This document shows, in pieces, positions 1 to 13,750 of a DNA stretch of 25,018 bases. Made by a program: the position numbers and the translations under genes. The notes below the pieces were generated by a model. That model saw nothing but the letters and a program-made list of their open reading frames with translations, was not told where the DNA came from and searched no databases. Within the stretch, counting starts at the first letter, position 1, and the number at the start of each line of letters is the position of its first letter. This DNA is from a virus: the UHGV virus genome UHGV-0289694. One strand, given 5' to 3'.

Positions 1-548
1 TCAGTGCATTCATCAGAAGCGATCCTCTTATGAGATGTAGGGTGACATGGCGATGCTCATTTCGTAGCCATAATCTAAAAATATCTACATTTCTGAAAAG
101 TGCGCATAAAAGTTACATATTGTTTTCTTATTGTGATCAAAAACAACAAATTAATAACAAGTAATGTGAGGGATAAGAATTGGGTTGAAAGGAAATGAAT
201 AATTAAAACAATATATTAAGTGTGCTTATACTCTTTTTCGAACTGGTGGCATTTGTTTAAATGCTATTTAAACTGCTTTTTCAGAGTTCAACTTACTGAG
301 TTCCGTGTCGACTAATGTGAGTAAGATCAATCGCATCCAACCTATGTTACTTGATGGAATCGATAACAATATTAATGAATATACAGATTCCGGGAAGGCT
401 GGCTATGGGGGCAAATTATTCTCTTTCTGGCAACGGGTAAATAACAGTGACCATTTGTCGAGAAGCTGATACTGAGCTGAGGGATACTGTATATGTCTGG
501 ACTGTAATTGGATGAATTCTATTCAGGGCGGGTCAGGACCAATAAAAA

Positions 549-566
549 AGCCCGCATCAGCGGGCT
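549..566 (-). terminator. Intrinsic terminator hairpin in the host flank, read on the minus strand
   Basis: AGCCCGC-ATCA-GCGGGCT stem-loop (7-bp stem); the A-run on the plus strand at 544-549 is a U-tract for a leftward transcript. It lies ~130 nt downstream of the tmRNA 3' end copy in the same orientation. Confidence 0.5.
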
Positions 567-695
567 TTAATGTCATAGGGAGTCGCGACTCCGTTGCGTA
601 TCCTTTTTTGTCTCCTCACCGTCTGGTCGGTGTCCTGCTGAGACTTATAACTTCCTGTTTTTGTTGGTGTAGTCCTTACACCGTCCAATCATGAT

Positions 696-740
696 TGGTG
701 GAGCTGGCGGGAGTTGAACCCGCGTCCGAAATTCCTACAT
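696..740 (-). other. ssrA: Prophage attachment-site core: 3'-terminal ~45 nt of tmRNA (ssrA) including CCA
   Basis: Minus strand reads ATGTAGGAATTTCGGACGCGGGTTCAACTCCCGCCAGCTCCACCA, which I recognise from memory as the 3' end of enterobacterial tmRNA (T-arm, acceptor stem, CCA). Sequence further upstream on that strand (plus coordinates above 740) diverges from tmRNA, so this is a partial att copy, not a gene. Integrase lies 1.2 kb away. Confidence 0.6.
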
Positions 741-853
741 ACCATTATCACTGTAGGAAAAACAGATGTTTATATTTTAAAACAGTGGGTTAGTGTTTTC
801 CTTTGTTTGGGGGTTTTATCCATTTTTAACTCGCTGTCGCCATTTTGTCGCCA

Positions 854-1912
854 TCACATACGCATTTCATTTGAGATAGGGAGAATGTGTGTAAACAGAT
901 TTTCAAAATATAGGGCATAATCAGGGATGACGTTACCAGTATTTTTGCTTGCTAGAAAAATATTGGGGTCTTCGTCAATTAAAATATATAGTTCAATGAG
1001 AATGTTTCTTAGCCCCCAAAGCATTTGCTTAAGTTGTTTTTCATCACTATATGAGATAGTTATTGATTCTATATTATGTTTGGGATTCTCAAAAATTATT
1101 AGAAATAGATGTTCTTGGTATTTATAGTCAATCCCAAGTAATCGGCATAGTTCAATTATGTGTGATTCTATTAGTTGCAGATTAGATAATTGGATATCAT
1201 GAGTAGTATTTTTTGATGTAAGGCTTTTGTTTATTTTGTTATAAAGGTGTTTTGTTTTTTTTATGAAGCCATCTTCGACCGTGGTGCTATATCCATTATC
1301 GATTGAAGATGATTTGAATATATTTTTGTAGAGAGTGTAAGGATGAACGACAGATAATTCAATGTATTCCGTGCTTCCATCATTTTTGTTTAATCTTGAT
1401 ATTTTAAAAGCCGGTAGTGTTTTAAAAATATCCGCGTAACTTTTTAGATGTGAGTAATAAGAATCAGTTTTATTCTTTTCAATTACAAGATTGATTTGTT
1501 TTTGTGTTTTTTCAATCTGATTCTCTGTCTGAGTTGTTCTGTGTATATTATTTACTATTGATGCAAGAGGAACAGAAGAAGCTAAAATTAACAATGGTAA
1601 TTTAGAGATATCTAAGAATTGATTAAAGCCTTCTGACGTAAAATCTAAACTGTGACCTTTCCATGCCCAAAGGCCATACAAAATAAACATTTCTAACGGT
1701 ATGATAATTGAAGCTATAAATAATGGCTGCTTTAATAGGTTTTTCTCATTAAGTTTTAACCAGTTGAAATAATAGAATATAACAACCACACCAAGGATAT
1801 GAAATATGCTAAATAAAACAAAGATTCTTGGTCTATTGGTATACACTAAACCTAGTGCAATAATAATAGATATAATGGTATAGGCAATGATTGATGTTAG
1901 TTTAATTTTCAT
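854..1912 (-). CDS. Hypothetical membrane-anchored protein (about 4 N-terminal TM helices plus a ~200-aa soluble C-terminal domain); AT-rich cargo gene between int and att
   Basis: 352-aa ORF; N-terminus is hydrophobic (LTSIIAYTIISIIIALGLVY, IFVLFSIFHILGVVVIFYYF, LFIASIIIPLEMFILYGLWAW, LPLLILASSVPLASIV). Visibly more AT-rich than the neighbouring int. Start codon is 4 nt downstream of the int stop on the same strand. No family recognised. Confidence 0.6.
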   Translation of the reverse strand: MKIKLTSIIAYTIISIIIALGLVYTNRPRIFVLFSIFHILGVVVIFYYFNWLKLNEKNLLKQPLFIASIIIPLEMFILYGLWAWKGHSLDFTSEGFNQFLDISKLPLLILASSVPLASIVNNIHRTTQTENQIEKTQKQINLVIEKNKTDSYYSHLKSYADIFKTLPAFKISRLNKNDGSTEYIELSVVHPYTLYKNIFKSSSIDNGYSTTVEDGFIKKTKHLYNKINKSLTSKNTTHDIQLSNLQLIESHIIELCRLLGIDYKYQEHLFLIIFENPKHNIESITISYSDEKQLKQMLWGLRNILIELYILIDEDPNIFLASKNTGNVIPDYALYFENLFTHILPISNEMRM

Positions 1913-1916
1913 TTTG

Positions 1917-2933
1917 TTAAACCAAAGTATACAAAGGGTTTTTTGTTACAGCATCTTCAAGATGATCCGGAGAAAAGTGAGCGTAAACCATCGTCATTTT
2001 TATGTCAGCATGACCAAGAATATCTCGCAGTACCAGTATATTTCCGCCGTTCATCATAAAATGGCTGGCGAATGTATGGCGCAGTACGTGGGTGCACTGG
2101 CCCTCTGGCAACTCGATGCCGGCTCGCTTTACTGCTCGTTCAAAGGCTTTTCTACATGGCGTGAATAACTTCCCTCTGTTCTTCGGGAGTTCGTCATACA
2201 GTTCCTGTGATATCGGTACTGTTCTGTTTTTCTTGCCTTTGGTCTTTGTATAAGTAATTCGGTATTTCGATATTTGGTGACCCTGCAGGTTTTCTGCTTC
2301 ACTCCATCGTGCACCAGTAGCCAAACATATTTTTGCAATCATTAGTAGGCTGGCATTTTGAGATTCGGCGCAGGCATTAAGCAGGCGTTTGATTTCGTCC
2401 GCGGAAAGAAAAGCTAGCTCACCTTCGGCAATTTTGAAGGTCGGAAGTCCTGCCAGCGGGTTTGGTGCTGACCAGTGTCCTAGTTTTTTTAATGTACCGA
2501 ACACCGATGATAGATTGCGCTGTTCAAGGTTTACCGTGCGGGGCTTAACGGGCGACATAAGCGTGCCATCTTCATTTCGTACTTCACCTTTTAACCGTGC
2601 TTCACGGTATTTCGTAAAGTCACCAGCTGTCAGTTCTGAGGCGATGGGATCGCCTAGACCATTACAGATAATTCTAAGTTTCGCCATGAGGCGCTTGGGG
2701 TCTGCGAGTGTTTGACCATACAGGGAATACCACTGCTCAATTAATTCTGATAGGTGTCGCCGATCTTCCTTTTCCCCCAGCCATGGTTTTTTGTTCACTT
2801 CTTCCATTGTGAAGCTTTCAAAAGCAATGGCTTCGCCTTTCGTAGCAAATTGCTTACGCACGCGCTTGCCATTGCGTCCATTGGGATAGCACTCGCACAA
2901 CCATTTACCGTTTGGCTGTTTTCTGACAGTCAT
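1917..2933 (-). CDS. int: Phage integrase, tyrosine recombinase (P2/186 type)
   Basis: 338 aa; C-terminal catalytic region VLRHTFASHF...LGHADIKMTMVYAHF carries the H-x-x-R and catalytic Tyr signature of tyrosine recombinases; sits next to att and the repressor. Confidence 0.95.
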   Translation of the reverse strand: MTVRKQPNGKWLCECYPNGRNGKRVRKQFATKGEAIAFESFTMEEVNKKPWLGEKEDRRHLSELIEQWYSLYGQTLADPKRLMAKLRIICNGLGDPIASELTAGDFTKYREARLKGEVRNEDGTLMSPVKPRTVNLEQRNLSSVFGTLKKLGHWSAPNPLAGLPTFKIAEGELAFLSADEIKRLLNACAESQNASLLMIAKICLATGARWSEAENLQGHQISKYRITYTKTKGKKNRTVPISQELYDELPKNRGKLFTPCRKAFERAVKRAGIELPEGQCTHVLRHTFASHFMMNGGNILVLRDILGHADIKMTMVYAHFSPDHLEDAVTKNPLYTLV

Positions 2934-2935
2934 GT

Positions 2936-3568
2936 TTAGATACTCTTTATTACTTTGACTGCACGCCCAATAACTTCCACATCATCAGCAGAGCACTCGA
3001 AAGACGCTTCATCTTGATTTACTACAATTTTATTGCCGGGAATCCGCATGATTTTTGCAATAATAATCATTCCATCAATATTGATAAGCCAGAATCCATT
3101 GCTGACTTGTTTAACTGATTTATCGATGAGATAACAATCAGTAGGGGTTTCTAAGAACATCGATTCTTCATAATCTGCAGGTAATATGCTGTGGTCTAGG
3201 AAAATCTCTTCATCAATACTGAGTTGCCCATTTTCCAAGGTTCCTTTAGGAATAGATGGAGTTATGAGTTTGGATAACGGTTTAATTGCTTGTTTGTTCT
3301 CGTTATGAGATCTTTTCTCAGACTCGTATCCTTCTTTCATGCTTCCCTGTCCTGTGGCTAACCAAAGTAACGAAACACCGGTTTCTAGTGCACACTGAAT
3401 TATCCAGTCAGCAGGAAAGCTGTCACGTAACACTCTGTTTGCCATAGTACTTTTTGAGACATTCAGGTGCTCGCTTAATGCCTGCTTAGTTGTGAATCCA
3501 TAAGCCTTAAGCAGCCTCTCAATAGCTGCCTTACCTCCCGTATCGGAACCCATTCTGATGTTTAACAT
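2936..3568 (-). CDS. cI: Immunity repressor CI, 186-type (N-terminal HTH plus C-terminal domain)
   Basis: 210 aa; N-terminal GGKAAIERLLKAYGFTTKQALSEHLNVSKSTMANRV resembles the phage CI repressor N-terminal HTH domain; immediately upstream of int on the same strand and divergent from apl/cII. GGAG Shine-Dalgarno 8 nt before the ATG at 3568. Confidence 0.85.
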   Translation of the reverse strand: MLNIRMGSDTGGKAAIERLLKAYGFTTKQALSEHLNVSKSTMANRVLRDSFPADWIIQCALETGVSLLWLATGQGSMKEGYESEKRSHNENKQAIKPLSKLITPSIPKGTLENGQLSIDEEIFLDHSILPADYEESMFLETPTDCYLIDKSVKQVSNGFWLINIDGMIIIAKIMRIPGNKIVVNQDEASFECSADDVEVIGRAVKVIKSI

Positions 3569-4873: not shown

Positions 4874-5112
4874 CGATCTATCAGTGTCTGTATCAGATGA
4901 GTGAATTCTTGTTGTTTAACCGAACCTAAAGGAAGTTTGTTTAATTCTTCGCGGAGGAGCTCAAAAAATGCAGATTGATTTGCTGAGTCAGTTCGAAATA
5001 AGGAGTGGATCAGACCTGAAACAAGAATTCGTTGAACAGCAAGCTCATCGCGAAGACTGGAGATCTCGTTTTCAAGTTGCTCTAAACGCTCTCTTTCAAC
5101 CGGGTTCAACAT
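4864..5112 (-). CDS. Hypothetical small coiled-coil protein on the opposite strand within the early operon
   Basis: 82 aa with heptad-like Leu/Glu pattern (LEQLENEISSLRDELAVQRIL); AGGAA 7 nt upstream of the ATG on the minus strand; lies in an AT-rich patch. It competes with plus-strand ORF 4968..5204, which has a GGAGG RBS. Confidence 0.35.
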   Translation of the reverse strand: MLNPVERERLEQLENEISSLRDELAVQRILVSGLIHSLFRTDSANQSAFFELLREELNKLPLGSVKQQEFTHLIQTLIDRYR

Positions 5113-5193
5113 TGATGATTCCTTCTAGCTATCAATATGTTGGTAATGGATCATATCAAAAAATTTTTAGTAGATGTGTTGTGGGATGCATAA

Positions 5194-5535
5194 ATGGCTA
5201 TTGAAGGCGCTGCGGCGACTGTTCCATTAAGCCCCGGCGAACGCCTGAATGGACTTAATCACATTGCGGAGTTAAGGGCGAAAGTATTTGGCCTGAATAT
5301 TGAGTCAGAGCTTGAGCGGTTTATTAAAGATATGCGTGATCCACGGGATATCAATAATGAACAAAATAAACGGGCACTGGCTGCTATATTCTTTATGGCA
5401 AAAATTCCAGCTGAACGTCATAGCATCAGCATTAATGAGCTGACCACTGACGAAAAGCGGGAGCTGATTAAAGCAATGAATCATTTTCGTGCAGTGGTGA
5501 GCTTATTTCCCAGACGGCTAACCATGCCGAATTAA
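5194..5535 (+). CDS. Hypothetical early-region protein
   Basis: 113-aa ORF in the rightward early operon; no motif recognised. Confidence 0.5.
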   Translation: MAIEGAAATVPLSPGERLNGLNHIAELRAKVFGLNIESELERFIKDMRDPRDINNEQNKRALAAIFFMAKIPAERHSISINELTTDEKRELIKAMNHFRAVVSLFPRRLTMPN

Positions 5536-5602
5536 CCAACTAATGAAATCAATGGCGTAAACCCGCCGGGCATCCCTTTATCTAAATTCAGGAGAATTGA
5601 TT

Positions 5603-5836
5603 ATGCGTAATATTGAAACCCTCACGACTAAAACCGGACCGGATGATGCAGGGCTTAATATTTTACTGACAGAGGCTCGTCTGGAAGAACGCCGGGCAAG
5701 GGCTGAAGCAATGGCAGCTCGCCTTGATAGCCTGGCGTGTCATATCTCATCCCGCCAGCTAAACCACGTCGAAGTAGCAGAACTGCTGCGTGTGACCGCT
5801 GAAGCAATCCAGAACGAAGCGCAGGAGATCCACTAA
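5603..5836 (+). CDS. Hypothetical early-region protein
   Basis: ATG at 5603 with AGGAG 8 nt upstream; stop overlaps the start of the next gene (TAATG). Confidence 0.55.
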   Translation: MRNIETLTTKTGPDDAGLNILLTEARLEERRARAEAMAARLDSLACHISSRQLNHVEVAELLRVTAEAIQNEAQEIH

Positions 5837-6063
5837 TGGCTGATGCAATGGATCTCGTACAGCAGCGCGTTGAAGAAGAACGCCAGCGCCACATCCGTGC
5901 TGCCCGTGCCAAAACGCCGGGCGTGTCCCGCGTGCTTTGCGTTGAGTGTGAAGCGCCAATTCCGCCAGCACGCCGCCGTGCCATTCCGGGTGTGCAACTT
6001 TGCATTACCTGTCAGGAAATCGCAGAGCTGAAAGGCAAACATTACAACGGAGGTGCTGTATGA
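5836..6063 (+). CDS. TraR/DksA-family C4 zinc-finger protein
   Basis: 75 aa; CVEC-x17-CITC four-cysteine motif near the C-terminus, typical of phage TraR/DksA-like proteins; start/stop overlap with both neighbours. Confidence 0.8.
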   Translation: MADAMDLVQQRVEEERQRHIRAARAKTPGVSRVLCVECEAPIPPARRRAIPGVQLCITCQEIAELKGKHYNGGAV

Positions 6064-6917
6064 GCACCATCCTGAAATGGGCGGGAAATAAAACCGCCAT
6101 TATGTTCGAACTGAAAAAACATCTTCCTGCTGGTCCGCGACTGGTTGAACCTTTCGCGGGTTCCTGTGCAGTGATGATGGAGACGGATTACCCCAGCTAT
6201 CTTGTTGCGGATATTAATCCTGATTTAATCAACCTCTATAAAAAGGTTGCTGCTGATTGTGAGGCGTTTATATCTCGTGCCAGAGCTTTATTTGAGGAAG
6301 CAAACAGAGAGGTGGCTTATTACAACATAAGGCAGGAGTTTAATTACTCCACTGAAATTACTGATTTCATGAAAGCGGTATATTTTCTGTATCTCAATCG
6401 TCACGGTTACCGTGGTTTATGTCGCTATAACAAGAGCGGGCATTTCAACATTCCCTACGGTAATTATAAAAATCCGTATTTCCCTGAAAAAGAAATTCGC
6501 GCATTTGCAGAAAAAGCCCAGCGAGCAACGTTTATCTGCGCCAGCTTTGATGAAACGCTGGCGATGTTGAAGGCGGGGGATGTGGTGTATTGCGATCCGC
6601 CGTATGACGGTACGTTTTCCGGCTATCACACTGATGGTTTCACTGAAGATGACCAGTATCACCTGGCATCCGTTCTTGAACATCGGTCATCAGAAGGACA
6701 TCCGGTCATTGTTTCTAACAGTGACACATCCCTGATCCGTTCGCTGTATCGCAATTTTACTCACCACTATATCAAGGTAAAACGCAGCATCGGTGTGGCA
6801 GCTGGCGAGGGTAAATCAGCAACAGAAATCATTGCTGTTTCCGGGCCGCGCTGCTGGGTGGGATTTGATTATTCGCGTGGCGTGGATAGTTCTGCCGTGT
6901 ACGGAGTACGTGCATGA
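6060..6917 (+). CDS. dam: DNA adenine methyltransferase (Dam-like, N6-adenine)
   Basis: N-terminal ILKWAGNK...EPFAGSCAV (AdoMet-binding motif I) and the DPPY catalytic motif ([10 protein letters not shown]); GGAGG RBS; ATGA overlaps with TraR-like upstream and gene A downstream. Confidence 0.9.
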
Positions 6918-9307
6918 GCCATGCCGATATGAACAACTGCTGCGGCTTTAACGAGGTTGCCGCAGCGTTCTCATGGAACAGCCCGAAAAAGGCCATTAAC
7001 CCTTATCTGGACCCGGCGGAAGTTGCGCCGGTTTCTGCGCTTTCAAACCTGATCACTCTGTACGCTGCCGATAACGAGCAGGAACAGTTGCGCCGCGAGG
7101 CACTGAGTGATCAGGTCTGGGAGCGTTATTTTTTTAATGAATCACGTGATCCTGTCCAGCACGAAATGGAGCAGGATAAGCTCATTAGCCGGGCAAAGCT
7201 GGCGCATGAGCAGCAGCGTTTTAATCCGGATATGGTCATTCTGGCGGACGTCAACGCCCAGCCTTCTCATATCAGCAAGCCGCTTATGCAACGTATTGAA
7301 TACTTCAGCAGCCTGGGCAGGCCAAAGGCTTATTCCCGCTATTTACGTGAGACGATTAAGCCATGTCTGGAACGACTGGAGCATGTACGCGACAGCCAGC
7401 TATCTGCATCTTTTCGTTTTATGGCAAGCCATGTAGGGCTGGACGGCCTGCTGATCCTGCCTGAAATGAGTCAGGATCAGGTGAAACGCCTGTCTACCCT
7501 TGTCGCTGCGCATATGAGCATGTGCCTTGATGCAGCTTGTGGTGATTTGTATGCCACCGATGACGTTAAGCCAGAAGAAATCCGCAAGACATGGGAAAAG
7601 GTGGCAGCGGAAACCCTGCGTCTGGATGTCATCCCGCCTGCGTTTGAGCAACTCCGTCGGAAAAGAAACCGCCGTAAACCCGTGCCCTATGAACTCATTC
7701 CGGGTTCGCTGGCGCGTATGTTGTGCGCCGACTGGTGGTACCGGAAATTATGGAAAATGCGTTGCGAATGGCGGGAAGAGCAGTTGCGTGCTGTCTGCCT
7801 GGTCAGCAAAAAAGCATCTCCCTATGTCAGCTATGAAGCCGTGATGCATAAACGTGAGCAGCGCCGCAAGTCACTGGAGTTTTTCCGTTCTCATGAACTG
7901 GTGAACGAAGAGGGCGACACGCTGGATATGGAAGACGTGGTAAACGCCAGCAGCAGCAACCCGGCGCACCGCCGCAATGAGATGATGGCCTGTGTTAAAG
8001 GTCTGGAGCTTATCGCGGAAATGCGCGGTGACTGCGCCGTTTTCTACACCATTACCTGTCCGTCACGTTTCCATTCCACGCTCAATAACGGCAGACCAAA
8101 CCCAACCTGGACAAATGCGACGGTAAGACAAAGCAGCGATTATCTGGTCGGCATGTTTGCTGCATTTCGTAAGGCGATGCACAAAGCCGGGTTGCGCTGG
8201 TATGGCGTGCGGGTGGCTGAGCCGCATCATGACGGTACAGTTCACTGGCACCTGTTGTGTTTCATGCGCAAAAAAGACCGCCGCGCCATTACTGCATTGT
8301 TGCGTAAATTTGCCATCCGTGAAGACCGCGAGGAACTGGGTAATAACACTGGTCCACGCTTTAAATCTGAGCTGATAAACCCGCGCAAAGGAACGCCGAC
8401 AAGCTACATCGCGAAATACATCAGTAAGAACATTGACGGGCGTGGTCTGGCTGGCGAGATCAGCAAGGAAACGGGTAAATCCCTGCGTGATAACGCTGAA
8501 TACGTTAATGCCTGGGCGTCTCTGCATCGTGTTCAGCAATTCCGCTTCTTTGGCATTCCGGGGCGTCAGGCTTACCGTGAACTGCGATTGCTGGCTGGTC
8601 AGGCGGCAAGGCAACAGGGTGACAAAAAAGCAGGTGCGCCGGTACTGGATAACCCGCGCCTTGATGCCATTCTGGCTGCAGCTGATGCTGGTTGCTATGC
8701 CACCTACATCATGAAGCAGGGCGGCGTACTGGTTCCCCGTAAATATCACCTCATCAGAACCGCTTATGAAATCAACGAAGAGCCGACCGCCTATGGCGAT
8801 CACAGTATTCGTATTTATGGCATCTGGTCACCCATTGCAGAGGGCAAGATCTGCACTCATGCAGTGAAGTGGAAAATGGTTCGTAAGGCCGTTGACGTTC
8901 AGGAGGCGGCAGCCGACCAGGGCGCTTGCGCCCCTTGGACTCGTGGCAATAACTGTCCCCCTGTTGAAAATTTGAACCAGACAGGGGGGGAGCTGCCCGA
9001 TATTAAAACCATGAATGAGCAGGAACTGCAGGATTACCTACACAATATGGGCCAGAAGGAACGCCGGGAGCTGACAGCCAGGTTGAGACTGGTAAAACCG
9101 AAGCGGAAAAAAGCATACATACAGAGTATTTCGGAGCAACAGCGCCTGCAGCTTGAGGCAGAACTCAGCTCCCGGGGATTTAATGCAAGCGATGCTGAAG
9201 TGGATCTACTTTTACGTGGCGGCAGCATTCCGTCAGGTGCCGGGCTGCGTATTTTTTACCGCAAACACCGGCTGCAGGAAGATGACAAATGGCGGCAGTG
9301 GTACTGA
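6914..9307 (+). CDS. A: Rolling-circle replication initiator (P2 gpA-like HUH endonuclease)
   Basis: 797 aa; HUH-type motif VHWHLLCF and active-site tyrosine motif [12 protein letters not shown]; size and position match P2 A / 186 A. Confidence 0.9.
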
Positions 9308-9799: not shown

Positions 9800-10360
9800 T
9801 TGCAAATGCTTGTTATGAATCATGTAATGTTAGATATAGAAACATTGGATGTTGAAAAAACGGCTTATATCCTTTCGGTTGGTGCGGCTTTCTTCGTGCC
9901 GGAGACTGGCGAGGTTGGTCCGGGTTTCTATCAAGTTATTTCGCTTGATCATGAACAAGCAGGCAGAACCATTGCCCCCTCCACTGTAAAGTGGTGGATG
10001 TATCAAAGTTCTGAAGCTAAAAACGAAAATTTTGGTGGCACTAAGGACCTTTTAGACGTTCTGAATGAATTTGTGGCGTTTGTTCTTCATAATCGTAATG
10101 GCCGAGTAAAAGTGTGGGGAAACGGGAAAGAGTTCGACTGCACTATCATGCATCATGCCCTGTCACAGGCAGGTCTGGAGTGCCCATGGTCATTCAGAGA
10201 TACTCTTGACGTCAGAACCATCTTAGCGCTTGGTGAAAGCAAAGGAATTTTTTCTCATGCTGACAAAAAGTTCACTGGCATCAGGCACACAGCATTCGAT
10301 GATGTTTTATTTCAGATCGCACTGGTTTCTCATATCTATATGAATTTAAATAAAAAATAA
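9800..10360 (+). CDS. DnaQ-like DEDDh 3'-5' exonuclease (start may be at 9815 or 9827)
   Basis: Exo I motif MLDIETLD (D-x-E), Exo II WGNGKEFDCTIM, Exo III HTAFDDV (H-x4-D); ~180 aa single-domain protein; lower GC than phage core genes. Confidence 0.8.
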   Translation: MQMLVMNHVMLDIETLDVEKTAYILSVGAAFFVPETGEVGPGFYQVISLDHEQAGRTIAPSTVKWWMYQSSEAKNENFGGTKDLLDVLNEFVAFVLHNRNGRVKVWGNGKEFDCTIMHHALSQAGLECPWSFRDTLDVRTILALGESKGIFSHADKKFTGIRHTAFDDVLFQIALVSHIYMNLNKK

Positions 10361-10375
10361 ATATAGGACTTAGCT

Positions 10376-11287
10376 ATGGATTGCTTAGATGTAACCAATT
10401 GGACTGAGCTAGATGTTTTCGCACAATATCCTGTTGGTGCTCGCTCTAAGGCATTGGTTATTTCCCCTGATGTAGCACCCCATGGTATCAAAGCATCGTG
10501 GCCGTATCTTTTTAAGAGAAGTATTAAAAAGTATCCAGATCAATTTTGGTGTGAGATCGTTGCCTACAGGATTGGATTGAAGCTTGGTTTTGATGTCCCC
10601 AAAGCAGTTCCATCGGTAAAGACTAATGATTTGGGGCATACGTTTTGCGGGGCCCTCATTGAGTGGTTTCATCATAAAGATTATGAGAAATTTGCTCCCG
10701 CTGGTGATTACTTTGTCCGAAGAGATCCAAATTTTGATCGCGAGAAAGGAGCTCAGCATTCCCTTGAAGGGCTGAGGATTATCGCGAAAGCTCTTAAAGT
10801 TGACTATGTTGAGTGGTTGGAGGACATGGCTCTCTTTGACGCTGTGATAGGTAATACAGATAGACATCAAGAAAATTGGGGGTTTGTCTTTTCACCTTTA
10901 GCCAGCGAGTGTCAGCTTGCACCATTTTTCGATAATGGTACGAGCTTATGTTACGAACGCTTTCCGGAGCATGTTGCCGATTGGACCGATCATAGACTCA
11001 GGGAGCATGTTGGCCGGGGAAGGCATCATTTGCGTAAGACTCTGGGCAAAGATGAGTATCAGAGATTAGGTCATTTAGAGTTCATCAAAGAACTTTGTGA
11101 TAAAAAAGAAGCATTAAAACAGCGGGTAGCTGAAAAACTGGCTCTTTTGAACCATGATTTTTGGGAGTCAACTTTTGCGGAGTTGACGGAAATAAACTGC
11201 CCTGTTCCGCTGACTAGAGAACGTGCTGCATGGATTGTTCGTGTAACAAACATGCGTATTGAACTGATTAAAGGTGTTACTTCATGA
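10376..11287 (+). CDS. HipA-like Ser/Thr kinase core (HipT-like, lacking the HipA N-terminal subdomain)
   Basis: P-loop-like PVGARSKALV (cf. HipA VAGAQEKTAL), catalytic motif VIGNTDRHQEN (cf. HipA GATDGHAKN; Asp at nt 10859), Mg-binding LAPFFDNG (cf. HipA TPFYD); 303 aa; 15-nt gap after the exonuclease gene. Confidence 0.8.
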   Translation: MDCLDVTNWTELDVFAQYPVGARSKALVISPDVAPHGIKASWPYLFKRSIKKYPDQFWCEIVAYRIGLKLGFDVPKAVPSVKTNDLGHTFCGALIEWFHHKDYEKFAPAGDYFVRRDPNFDREKGAQHSLEGLRIIAKALKVDYVEWLEDMALFDAVIGNTDRHQENWGFVFSPLASECQLAPFFDNGTSLCYERFPEHVADWTDHRLREHVGRGRHHLRKTLGKDEYQRLGHLEFIKELCDKKEALKQRVAEKLALLNHDFWESTFAELTEINCPVPLTRERAAWIVRVTNMRIELIKGVTS

Positions 11288-11988
11288 CTATCTTAATAGA
11301 AAACATTCCCATGCCCAGTAGGCTCTTACTGACATGGCAACCGGTTGACGGAGGCTCTCGCTATGTCGTTGGTGAGCTTCTTCAAGATGAGTCTGAAGGC
11401 TACGAGTTTAATTATCTTACTGATAGCAAAGATTTTGCTAAAGCTAGGGATAACGGCTTTCGCGGTTTTCCTGCTTTTGATATAAAAGTTGCGACTCATC
11501 GCAAAGACGTTATGCAAACCTTTTCAAGAAGGTTACCCTCCAGGAAAAGAGAAGATTTTGACGATTACTTGCTGACGTTTCGTCTTCCTGCTGATTTTAG
11601 AGAGAATGACTTCGTTTTGCTCGCATGTACTGGCGGAAAAGTTGCTAGTGATGGTTTTTATTTTGTCCCAGACTTGTCTTCTGTTCGGCCACCTTTCGAT
11701 TACGTCATGGAGGTCGCTGGAACGAGGCACATGATCAAGGAAGGGCGTCTAGCGCTTGATGAGATATCAATTGGTGATGAAGTCATATTGCGGAATGAAG
11801 ATACCAATACGGTTGATCCGCTGGCCATATTGGTTACGAAAAACGACAATCATCTCGGATATGTCAACAAGGCATTGTGCGCCGCATTACGTGATCTAAG
11901 TAAAAACCATGATGTCAGTGGAGTGGTCGTACGTAAAAATGGCTCTTCGGATAGGCCTTTGATTTATGCAAAAGTATCCGTTCGGTGA
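11284..11988 (+). CDS. Two-domain protein: HipA N-terminal-like (HipS-like) domain fused to a HIRAN-like domain
   Basis: ATGA start/stop overlap with the kinase gene. N-terminal LLLTWQPVDGGSRYVVGELL...FSRRLP...LLACTGGKVASDGFYFVP parallels HipA residues 1-100 (KLVTWMNNQRVGEL...FDNLLPD...IGRDSVGAVTLIP). C-terminal DEVILRNEDTNTVDPLAILVTKNDNHLGYVNKALCAALRDL...VSGVVV fits the HIRAN pattern (L-x-L-x-R-E-x-x-N-x-x-D-x-x-A-I-x-V ... G-Y/H-hydrophobic ... A-x-x-L-A-x-x-hydrophobic-D). Domain calls are from motif memory, not a search. Confidence 0.6.
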   Translation: MTILIENIPMPSRLLLTWQPVDGGSRYVVGELLQDESEGYEFNYLTDSKDFAKARDNGFRGFPAFDIKVATHRKDVMQTFSRRLPSRKREDFDDYLLTFRLPADFRENDFVLLACTGGKVASDGFYFVPDLSSVRPPFDYVMEVAGTRHMIKEGRLALDEISIGDEVILRNEDTNTVDPLAILVTKNDNHLGYVNKALCAALRDLSKNHDVSGVVVRKNGSSDRPLIYAKVSVR

Positions 11989-12709: not shown

Positions 12710-13750
12710 TTACTCAGAAATATCTAAGTTGTAAGATTCAAAGCAAATCACTTTTTCACCTAGCCAGTTGTTCAGCTCTTGCAGCCGCTTTTGCAGTGGC
12801 ATCAGTTCATTGCGGACAAACACTCGACTAGCCTTCTCCACATCCCCAAACCCCCCGACATTATTAGGCATTATCCCCATCATTTGTGGCGGCACACGAT
12901 GCGCCGCCATCATGTCGTCCCGGCTCACGTTCTTGATATTCAGGAACTCATCCTTCGCCGCCACTTCTGACAACGGGATAATCTGAAGCCCGTCCTTTTT
13001 ACCGTTAGGCGAGTACATAAACAGGTTACGGAAGTTACCAGGACCTTTGGCGCTTTTCATCGCATTGCGGAGGTTGTTCACATCCTCCTGGTTCTGCGCA
13101 GCATCGGTCATGTACATGATGAAGCCTGCATGACTGCCGTTAATGTAATACTTGCGGCGGAACAGCGTGGCGGACTCGTTGAGCAGAGCTGACGGAATGG
13201 CAGAAAGATAACCGGGCAGGCCGTAGATCTCCTGGTTAATGTCCGGTTCCATCAGATGAAAAATGCTGCCTTTCGTGAACTGATACGGCTGGGTTGTCAT
13301 ACCGTATTGCACAAACCAGTAGGTATCCAGGTCTAACCCGCGTCGGGTGTATTTTGCCAGTGCAGGCTCAAGGGCGATAACTTCACCGAAGCGGTTCGTG
13401 CGTTTCTCCAGGTAGGCGTTACCAAAAACCAGATAGTCCTGCACAAAACGCGAAAAAGCCTGCTGGCTGAGCAGCGGGTGAGGGATGTAGGTGCTGGTCA
13501 GAATGTTGCATTTCACTGCAATTGGTGAACTGTGATGCACGGCAGCGCGGAAGGTGCGCGCCAGTCCGTCAAAGCTGACGGGAGGCTCATACCAGCGATC
13601 TGTCTGTACGCATTCCACATAGTCCAGCAGTTCGCGGCGGTCAAGTACTGGAATGGGATCACCGAAGCTGAATGCTTCGGCTGAAGCTTGGCTTTTATGC
13701 TGGATCTGGTTCGTCGCCGCAGCGCATTTTTTTTTACTCTTTCCCATCAA
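12710..13750 (-). CDS. Q: Portal protein (P2 gpQ-like)
   Basis: 346 aa; size, position downstream of the large terminase on the minus strand with start/stop overlap, and overall resemblance to P2 Q. Confidence 0.9.
   Translation of the reverse strand: MMGKSKKKCAAATNQIQHKSQASAEAFSFGDPIPVLDRRELLDYVECVQTDRWYEPPVSFDGLARTFRAAVHHSSPIAVKCNILTSTYIPHPLLSQQAFSRFVQDYLVFGNAYLEKRTNRFGEVIALEPALAKYTRRGLDLDTYWFVQYGMTTQPYQFTKGSIFHLMEPDINQEIYGLPGYLSAIPSALLNESATLFRRKYYINGSHAGFIMYMTDAAQNQEDVNNLRNAMKSAKGPGNFRNLFMYSPNGKKDGLQIIPLSEVAAKDEFLNIKNVSRDDMMAAHRVPPQMMGIMPNNVGGFGDVEKASRVFVRNELMPLQKRLQELNNWLGEKVICFESYNLDISE

Follow-up and report, generated by a model that had tools for sequence, protein, structure and literature searches.

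The 25,018-nucleotide stretch of viral DNA analyzed here (UHGV virus genome UHGV-0289694), referred to at its full length as the window, contains a 186-like prophage integrated at ssrA, whose backbone genes encode CI, Apl-like, CII, Fil, GpA and portal proteins. At one end of the prophage three genes on the minus strand form a leftward string. The first is cI (2936..3568), encoding a 186-type CI repressor with Phage_CI_repr and Phage_CI_C domains. It is followed, after a gap of 2 nucleotides, by int (1917..2933, stop codon at 1917-1919), which encodes a tyrosine integrase (Int_N and Phage_integrase), and finally by an open reading frame (ORF) of 352 amino acids (854..1912) that starts with ATG and ends with a TGA stop codon at 854-856. 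This last gene, a member of PHROG 17460, is the subject of our analysis and will be called the cargo ORF. A 4-nucleotide spacer, CAAA (1913..1916, minus strand), separates it from int; the junction reads TAA-CAAA-ATG and has no obvious Shine-Dalgarno sequence.

The original prediction, made from the letters of the window, described a 352-amino-acid ORF of low G+C content (GC) lying 4 nucleotides past the int stop on the same strand, and both the coordinates and a GC scan agree with this description. The GC of the cargo ORF is 0.28-0.30; int reaches 0.46-0.49 and the structural genes 0.54-0.59. The frame stays open for 1059 nucleotides in DNA of 29% GC, the family comprises about 900 clusters, and the ratio of nonsynonymous to synonymous substitution rates (dN/dS) is 0.13-0.15 when the ORF is compared with three alleles of 71-76% protein identity. 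Hence, the cargo ORF is a real gene under purifying selection and no chance reading frame. No second copy of the gene (a paralogue, such as a holin) was found in the same prophage.

The cargo gene is inserted at the int-att junction

The att site is real. Its core, a displaced 3' end of ssrA (tmRNA), covers 46 base pairs (bp) at 695..740 on the minus strand and is identical at 46 of 46 positions to the ssrA 3' end of E. coli BE2-5, a strain with the same prophage remnant. Rfam returned a partial tmRNA match at 696-765, and ARAGORN run over the window found no tmRNA, as expected for a 46-bp fragment. A direct repeat, TGGCGACA-AAA-TGGCGACA (835..853, minus strand), begins one base past the ORF stop, and the TGGCGACA copies may be regarded as putative Int arm-type sites of attP. 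In relatives that carry nothing between int and att, the same repeats (TGGCGGCA) start 3 nucleotides past the int stop. Thus, the cargo is placed exactly between the int stop and the putative arm-type repeats.

The expected insertion into the int-att junction was borne out by 15 such relatives, in which the att core lies 152 bp past int with nothing in between, and by sharp breaks in homology. Homology to E. coli prophages with other cargo ends at 853/854 on one side and at 1923-1933, inside the 3' end of int, on the other. Consequently, the few int codons that follow the conserved ...KNPL are supplied by each cassette itself, and the exchangeable cassette, for which relatives with other cargo show no homology, spans 854..1922 (no strand assigned), these last int codons included.

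Analysis of the flanks revealed that the 150 bp past the att core (window 545-695), the terminator-like hairpin at 568-547 included, accompany the prophage end into varied chromosomal neighbourhoods; the neighbour is ypjA in some E. coli strains and glaH in the window. Such a pattern would be expected if window 545-695 were the native 3' flank of ssrA, displaced as one element after another integrated there. E. coli BE2-5 has this cI-int-cargo end joined to a heavily deleted prophage (L001 6271-6980), in which CII is fused to lysozyme and gpD fragments, followed by ogr. The cargo gene has been kept in this remnant, which is itself no longer able to make phage.

Slot contents vary among related prophages

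The interval between int and att, hereafter the slot, was surveyed in 80 IMG/VR loci with Int proteins 89-100% identical. It was empty in 15 loci and contained a gene of the window protein's family in 20, one of these copies being split by an insertion sequence (IS). A soluble family of about 400 amino acids filled the slot in 22 loci and a family of about 510 amino acids in 8. A dCTP deaminase (3 loci), a transmembrane (TM) protein of about 220 amino acids (2), a pair formed by a dCTP-deaminase-like (DCD-like) protein and ThyX (2) and a SMEK-domain protein (1) were also found, and the remaining 7 loci were truncated or of other content. There are thus at least 6 cargo types besides the window protein's family, which is itself one of the two commonest cargo families of the slot. 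The presence/absence polymorphism that had been predicted for this position is therefore seen, together with replacement by other cargo. The view of the gene as a one-off foreign moron did not hold, because its family occupies 20 of the 80 loci and members 33-38% identical sit at the same place in other genera.

Complete E. coli genomes with the same prophage backbone at the same chromosomal site also differ in their slot genes. SCU-115 has a hypothetical protein of 412 amino acids, AF5 one of 222 amino acids, and F1005 a gene on the opposite strand annotated by RefSeq as 'anti-phage dCTP deaminase'. The 412- and 222-amino-acid proteins were considered as diverged family members and are unrelated to the family (hhalign against the family profile, <1% probability). 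In PADLOC the slot deaminase was recognized as dCTPase (E 2.2e-146) and the SMEK protein as Aga_REase-like (2.7e-30). Hence, among relatives the slot is also home to a known type of defence gene, dCTP deaminase.

The two large families of about 400 and about 510 amino acids matched nothing in Pfam or PADLOC. Members of the former are 34-100% identical to each other (for example in IMG/VR loci L023, L043, L050 and L062, at about 5020-6250), and both these and the genes of the latter (for example in L024, L027 and L048, at about 5014-6558) lie on the int strand directly past the int stop. Both families are as good candidates for new defence systems as the window gene. In L060 (5041-6596) and L097 (5044-6611) a dCTP-deaminase/dUTPase-like gene (PF22769) is followed by a ThyX thymidylate synthase gene (PF02511), a nucleotide-metabolism pair that could serve in defence, in counter-defence or in neither. 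The IS-split family gene (L052 5031-7277) is interrupted by an element with a DDE_Tnp_1 transposase of 317 amino acids, so that the gene can be lost by insertion. In Klebsiella aerogenes (L005-L008 6001-8377) the slot holds two tandem cassettes, the first encoding a 375-amino-acid family member that overlaps the int stop and the second a 397-amino-acid protein 96% identical to E. coli cargo of the 400-amino-acid family; in L005-L007 these cassettes are followed, at about 8510, by the ssrA att core described above. Cassettes can therefore stack.

In P2-like phages, the region from int to att has been designated a minor defence hotspot that accounts for 3% of the P2 systems (NAR 2026; PMC13586616). 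The slot as a defence hotspot is thus already known; the presence of the window protein's family there is undescribed in that work.

Predicted expression in the lysogen

With the exception of the deaminase, all slot cargo lies on the int strand and starts between a 4-nucleotide overlap with int and about 20 nucleotides past the int stop; in other family members the start codon overlaps the int stop (ATGA). This arrangement fits promoterless cassettes that would be expressed by read-through from int. The co-transcription with int suggested by the original prediction suits the geometry of the locus, with gaps of 2 and 4 nucleotides, no room for a promoter of the cargo's own and no terminator before 568-547. 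There, downstream of the ssrA fragment, a terminator-like hairpin with a T run (547..568, minus strand) provides the first such site after cI, int and the cargo. In phage 186 an int::lacZ fusion has been used as a reporter of leftward, lysogenic transcription (PMC7708051), and it is therefore a reasonable inference that lysogens would produce the cargo protein alongside CI. The notion of defence genes that prophages carry on the lysogenic transcript is, in general terms, already known.

A large family on several kinds of mobile element

The match of the cargo protein to PHROG 17460 (E 1.2e-47, 164 bits) extends over residues 34-307 and profile positions 9-286 of 343. The original prediction could place the soluble domain in no family; a family assignment can now be made, albeit to a phage orthologous group without annotated function. 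Searches of the window protein against Pfam, PADLOC and NCBIfam matched no family, and 68 distant relatives searched against Pfam and PADLOC gave no consistent one. Scattered single near-threshold hits of relatives (DctQ, ABC2_membrane, CBASS 2TM/4TM effectors, KwaA) were rejected as noise from TM composition. Signatures of glycosyltransferases, acyltransferases or GtrA/GtrC were not hit in Pfam or NCBIfam by the protein or its relatives, and the family profile compared with PDB chain sequences retrieved only designed helical bundles and coiled coils. The family is absent from PADLOC v2, and a literature search by RefSeq accession and PHROG number found no published function.

A word-seeded search yielded 77 clusters, all 'hypothetical' and all from Enterobacterales, and an exhaustive profile search returned 905 representatives (50% identity), of which 176 had E values below 1e-30. 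In Klebsiella aerogenes, Citrobacter freundii and Providencia, 186-like prophages have the members 33-38% identical to the window protein immediately behind int. Others were found in an element of Dickeya resembling an integrative and conjugative element (ICE), at the end of a siphovirus-type prophage in Proteus and on a chromosomal island in Leclercia. In att-bounded loci the family gene is the sole cargo, and the protein therefore appears to act alone. Of the complete E. coli genomes searched (5,426), 6 contain the exact allele, 6 a 78%-identical allele and 42 any member recognizable from its DNA; a scan of the genome collection with the closer family alignment gave 5 loci.

A conserved membrane module and a variable soluble domain

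Kyte-Doolittle analysis revealed hydrophobic segments at residues 1-26, 28-52, 59-78 and 102-120. In an AlphaFold2 model (predicted local distance difference test, pLDDT, 82.8) helices span residues 2-24, 28-48 and 63-84, and a 60-residue helix (104-163) runs out of the membrane into an alpha/beta-decorated helical domain. The hydropathy scan and the model thus agree with the original proposal of about four N-terminal TM helices and a soluble domain, the soluble part measuring 230 residues. Three regions can be distinguished, all encoded on the minus strand: four TM helices in residues 1-121 (1550..1912), a long juxtamembrane helix in residues 122-163 (1424..1549) and the C-terminal domain (C-domain) in residues 164-352 (857..1423).

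Conservation was assessed in 60 closer and 68 more distant family members and is distributed very unevenly. TM1 and TM2 are poorly conserved (20-28% identity in the closer set; dN/dS 0.12-0.49 for residues 1-48), and TM1 is missing in most members, so that the core of the family comprises three TM helices. The block of residues 49-163, by contrast, has a dN/dS of 0.02-0.04, with identities in the closer set of 54% for TM3, 87% for TM4 (KLPLLILASSVPLASIVN in the window protein) and 55% for the juxtamembrane helix. Invariant or nearly invariant positions are W51, L54, L59, Q62, F65, P72, G80 and W84 in loop2 and TM3, G95 and F99 in loop3, where an ISK motif is also conserved, and K104 PLLxLASSVPLASIVNN in TM4. 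The C-domain is the variable part (24% identity in the closer and 17% in the distant set; dN/dS 0.20), P191 and Y195 being its (near-)invariant residues.

The juxtamembrane helix carries two (near-)invariant polar patches, one formed by H124, R125, T126, Q128, T129, E130 and Q132 and the other by K146, N147, D150, H155 and K157; across the family the motif reads NNIHRTxQTE ... KNxxDxxxxHxK. In the closest clade a 7-residue (heptad) insertion lies between the patches and keeps the helical register, which suggests that both patches must face the same way. Loop2 has a net charge of +2 and loop3 of 0 to -1. By the positive-inside rule the long helix and the C-domain are probably cytoplasmic and loop3 periplasmic, and the only predicted periplasmic parts would be a 3-residue loop and the conserved 19-residue loop.

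Synonymous divergence (dS) between alleles is about 1, beside flanking Int proteins that are about 96% identical. Thus, the alleles were swapped by recombination and did not diverge in place.

A possible weak likeness of the soluble domain to HEPN proteins

The juxtamembrane helix and C-domain were modelled with a pLDDT of 90.7 as a confident bundle that weakly resembles HEPN. Weak fold matches of the soluble part include AbiV, DUF86, Las1 and a KNTase-type domain. Las1 we take to be a HEPN nuclease, and the C-terminal domains of LinB and ANT(6) are presumably of the same type. According to a survey of HEPN proteins (PMC3710099), the KNTase substrate-binding domain and DUF86/1ylm are related to HEPN. 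A relative 33% identical to the window protein, P0257, matched the Pfam model HEPN_RiboL-PSP at 2e-5 (25.1 bits against a cut-off of 28.4) and has the sequence RNAIAH at the loop-helix junction where the catalytic Rx4-6H motif belongs. The window protein itself gave no hit to Pfam HEPN models, and among the 68 relatives none reached an E value of 0.01 or better.

At the place of the motif the window protein has KNTTH (residues 234-238) and a 71%-identical relative NESFD, and in proteins 70-79% identical to P0257 the R or H of the motif is replaced by T, K or Y. Of 182 members, about 5% have Rx4-6H at the expected offset; elsewhere in these proteins its frequency is 2-3%. The motif is thus absent from the window protein and not a feature of the family as a whole. 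An active HEPN ribonuclease (RNase), a reading raised by the P0257 hit, was dropped as the leading one because the motif is no family feature. Remote homology and structure prediction, proposed at the outset as the way to place the soluble domain, gave a weak resemblance to HEPN and fell short of the Pfam HEPN gathering score. We consider it probable, at somewhat better than an even chance, that the soluble domain is derived from HEPN and has lost the classical catalytic motif.

Possible function of the cargo protein

Since this slot is occupied by a known anti-phage gene in related prophages, the cargo gene is a good candidate for a new phage-defence protein. We tentatively favour, at a little under an even chance, a single-protein defence against superinfecting phages that joins a variable cytoplasmic sensor to a conserved membrane effector. 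In this model, with its predicted expression, topology and HEPN-like fold and its putative anti-phage role and pore mechanism, the gene would be promoterless cargo of the int-att slot, most likely transcribed leftward with cI and int in the lysogen. Its product would be an inner-membrane protein in which TM3, the periplasmic loop, the Ser/Ala-rich TM4 and the juxtamembrane helix form a conserved module. The variable cytoplasmic HEPN-like domain would keep the protein off and recognize a phage product, and this recognition would be relayed along the long helix to the TM module. The module of TM3, TM4 and juxtamembrane helix would then oligomerize or open, the membrane potential would collapse and the infection would be aborted.

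A membrane effector is favoured because the strongest constraint acts on the TM module and the membrane-proximal helix and a weaker one on the soluble domain. TM4, in which Ser, Ala and Pro abound, hardly varies, whereas a plain anchor would be expected to resemble TM1 and TM2. Single-chain defence proteins usually pair a conserved effector with a recognition domain that diverges fast, and the family is found as a solitary gene on mobile elements of several types. Several observations weigh against this reading. No PADLOC defence model matched, and the 68 relatives gave only the scattered hits described above; Csx28, the working analogue (see below), is missing among the fold matches listed. 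A hotspot location is no proof of defence, given that the slot also accommodates the DCD-like and ThyX pair and two families without an assigned role. The conserved polar patches could be an active site instead of a gate. Finally, the topology is derived from the positive-inside rule alone, and the TM1-TM2 loop (NRPR) is also positively charged.

A rival reading is a membrane-tethered RNase, with the HEPN-like part as effector, H124/R125 and K146/N147/D150/H155/K157 as relocated catalytic residues, and a TM module that would sense an envelope or membrane cue (DNA injection, depolarization) so that RNA is cut at the inner membrane face. The invariant His, Arg, Lys and Asp residues of the family would suit such an enzyme, as would the match of P0257 to HEPN_RiboL-PSP with a canonical RNAIAH. 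In the HEPN survey, membrane-associated HEPN proteins with predicted cytoplasmic domains are described, along with HEPN families whose classical motif has given way to other conserved basic or His residues (Anantharaman et al. 2013; PMC3710099). However, Rx4-6H at its expected place is found in the above 5% of 182 members over a background of 2-3%, is lost even among the 70-79% relatives of P0257 and is replaced by KNTTH in the window protein and NESFD in the 71% relative. The invariant residues are on the first helix, some of them adjacent to the membrane and outside the canonical catalytic place, and TM4 is conserved beyond the need of a plain anchor, which together make this RNase improbable. 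We judge it just as improbable that the protein acts by non-lethal superinfection exclusion (Sie), one of the two mechanisms put forward in the original prediction, in which phage genome entry would be blocked at the inner membrane, for example by occupying or altering the entry route, and the cell would survive. A membrane protein at the prophage edge with predicted expression in the lysogen is reminiscent of exclusion genes such as P22 sieA, T4 imm and HK97 gp15, and a conserved TM module with a conserved periplasmic loop3 (G95, F99, ISK motif) would be well placed for this task. Yet the large variable domain, the diversifying part expected to carry specificity, is probably cytoplasmic, away from the incoming tail tip and ejection proteins, and the periplasm would see only the 3-residue and 19-residue loops; exclusion is less likely for this reason. 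A cytoplasmic C-domain favours intracellular sensing over a periplasmic entry block. No similarity to known Sie proteins was found in Pfam, PHROGs or PADLOC.

The gene may also have nothing to do with defence and encode a lysogenic-conversion or housekeeping membrane factor at a permissive site, active in envelope modification, stress tolerance, lysis timing or the modulation of integration and excision. This is unlikely in our estimation. In other temperate phages the O-antigen modification genes gtr and oac adjoin int-att, the same slot takes up nucleotide-metabolism genes (the DCD-like and ThyX pair), and no defence database matched. On the other hand, the protein has no glycosyl- or acyltransferase or other enzyme signature, and the gene is dispensable for the phage, 15 near-identical prophages being without any cargo. 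Alleles with a dS of about 1 and C-domains of 18% identity occur in backbones with 89-96% identical Int, and such deep divergence in near-identical backbones points to the rapid turnover typical of conflict genes. The slot is moreover shared with a validated type of defence gene, and the family is also found on an ICE and in an unrelated prophage type. Returning to the sensor-effector model, a wider and more doubtful form of it would hold that the family of about 900 clusters (50% identity; Enterobacterales and beyond) consists of undescribed single-chain abortive-infection (Abi) proteins, with the window protein as the founding case, each made of a pore or gate of three TM helices, a rigid helix and a hypervariable, catalytically dead HEPN-derived sensor, and that the int-attP gap is an integron-like promoterless slot under the cI-int transcript.

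Comparison with known systems

Akin to the int-att hotspot cargo of P2-like phages, the content of the slot varies among otherwise near-identical phages, and known defence genes (dCTP deaminase) alternate with the window gene. The published account, an analysis of the de Sousa/Rocha type, differs in that it counts recognized systems, about 3% of the P2 systems at this position, and does not include this family (PMC13586616). The broader frame is given by the P2/P4 hotspots of Rousset et al. 2022 (PMC9122126).

Csx28, the type VI-B2 CRISPR accessory protein, serves best as a working analogue of a non-catalytic HEPN-like bundle attached to a conserved membrane part. It consists of a TM helix and a non-catalytic HEPN-like bundle and forms a depolarizing pore (10.1101/2021.11.02.466367). 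Both proteins would have a membrane anchor followed by a four-helix HEPN-like bundle in which catalysis does not depend on Rx4-6H. With a single TM helix, Csx28 is about half as large as the window protein; it depends on Cas13b and depolarizes the membrane when triggered. In contrast, the window protein, known here from its sequence and monomer models, has 3-4 TM helices, stands alone and is prophage-borne; the window contains no CRISPR-Cas genes, its neighbours being int, cI and att. By sequence and by the listed fold matches it is no relative of Csx28.

Membrane-associated HEPN proteins and HEPN Abi proteins (AbiD/F, AbiV, RiboL-PSP-HEPN; PMC3710099) share with the window protein a predicted cytoplasmic helical bundle on an inner-membrane anchor and a mobile-element and defence context. 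Unlike catalytic HEPN proteins, the window protein and about 95% of its family lack Rx4-6H. From the three TM-HEPN groups of PMC3710099 it differs by 3-4 TM helices with conserved TM3-TM4 and by invariant residues on a different helix. Overall, we regard it as a member of an uncharacterized membrane-anchored family, possibly derived from HEPN, in a known prophage hotspot.

A further parallel is RexB of phage lambda, likewise a polytopic inner-membrane protein on the lysogenic repressor transcript, which has been proposed to abort infection through loss of membrane potential. RexB needs a separate sensor, RexA, whereas the window protein would hold sensor and effector in one chain. No relation between the two in sequence or fold was found.

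The classical P2 defence hotspot of the same prophage, GpA-GpQ, is also loaded. Between GpA (6914-9307) and the portal gene (12710-13750, minus strand), window 9800-11988 on the plus strand encodes an Rv2179c-like 3'-5' exoribonuclease (9800-10360; PF16473, 8.5e-51) and the two components of the PADLOC candidate PDC-M03, a HipA_C-like kinase (10376-11287; 1.6e-34) and a HIRAN-domain protein (11284-11988; 5.8e-37). The GC of this cargo is 0.42-0.45, against the 0.54-0.59 of the structural genes. Just upstream of GpA, a D12-class (Dam-like) adenine methyltransferase gene (6000-6917, plus strand; PADLOC orphan methyltransferase, 2.3e-111) is also kept in the Klebsiella and Citrobacter relatives.

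If the cargo gene is protective, it would extend the defence repertoire of E. coli, Klebsiella and Citrobacter by a common single-gene system not listed until now, and, if the model is true, its product would be a second example, independent of Csx28, of a degenerate HEPN bundle put to new use on a membrane effector. Were it non-defensive, it would still be one of the two accessory genes found most often in ssrA-integrated 186-like prophages, without a known role. In either case the slot is a compact and easily cloned place to seek new systems, because insertion is exact to the base, the last int codons are replaced, expression would nearly always come by read-through from int, and two unknown families of about 400 and about 510 amino acids share it.

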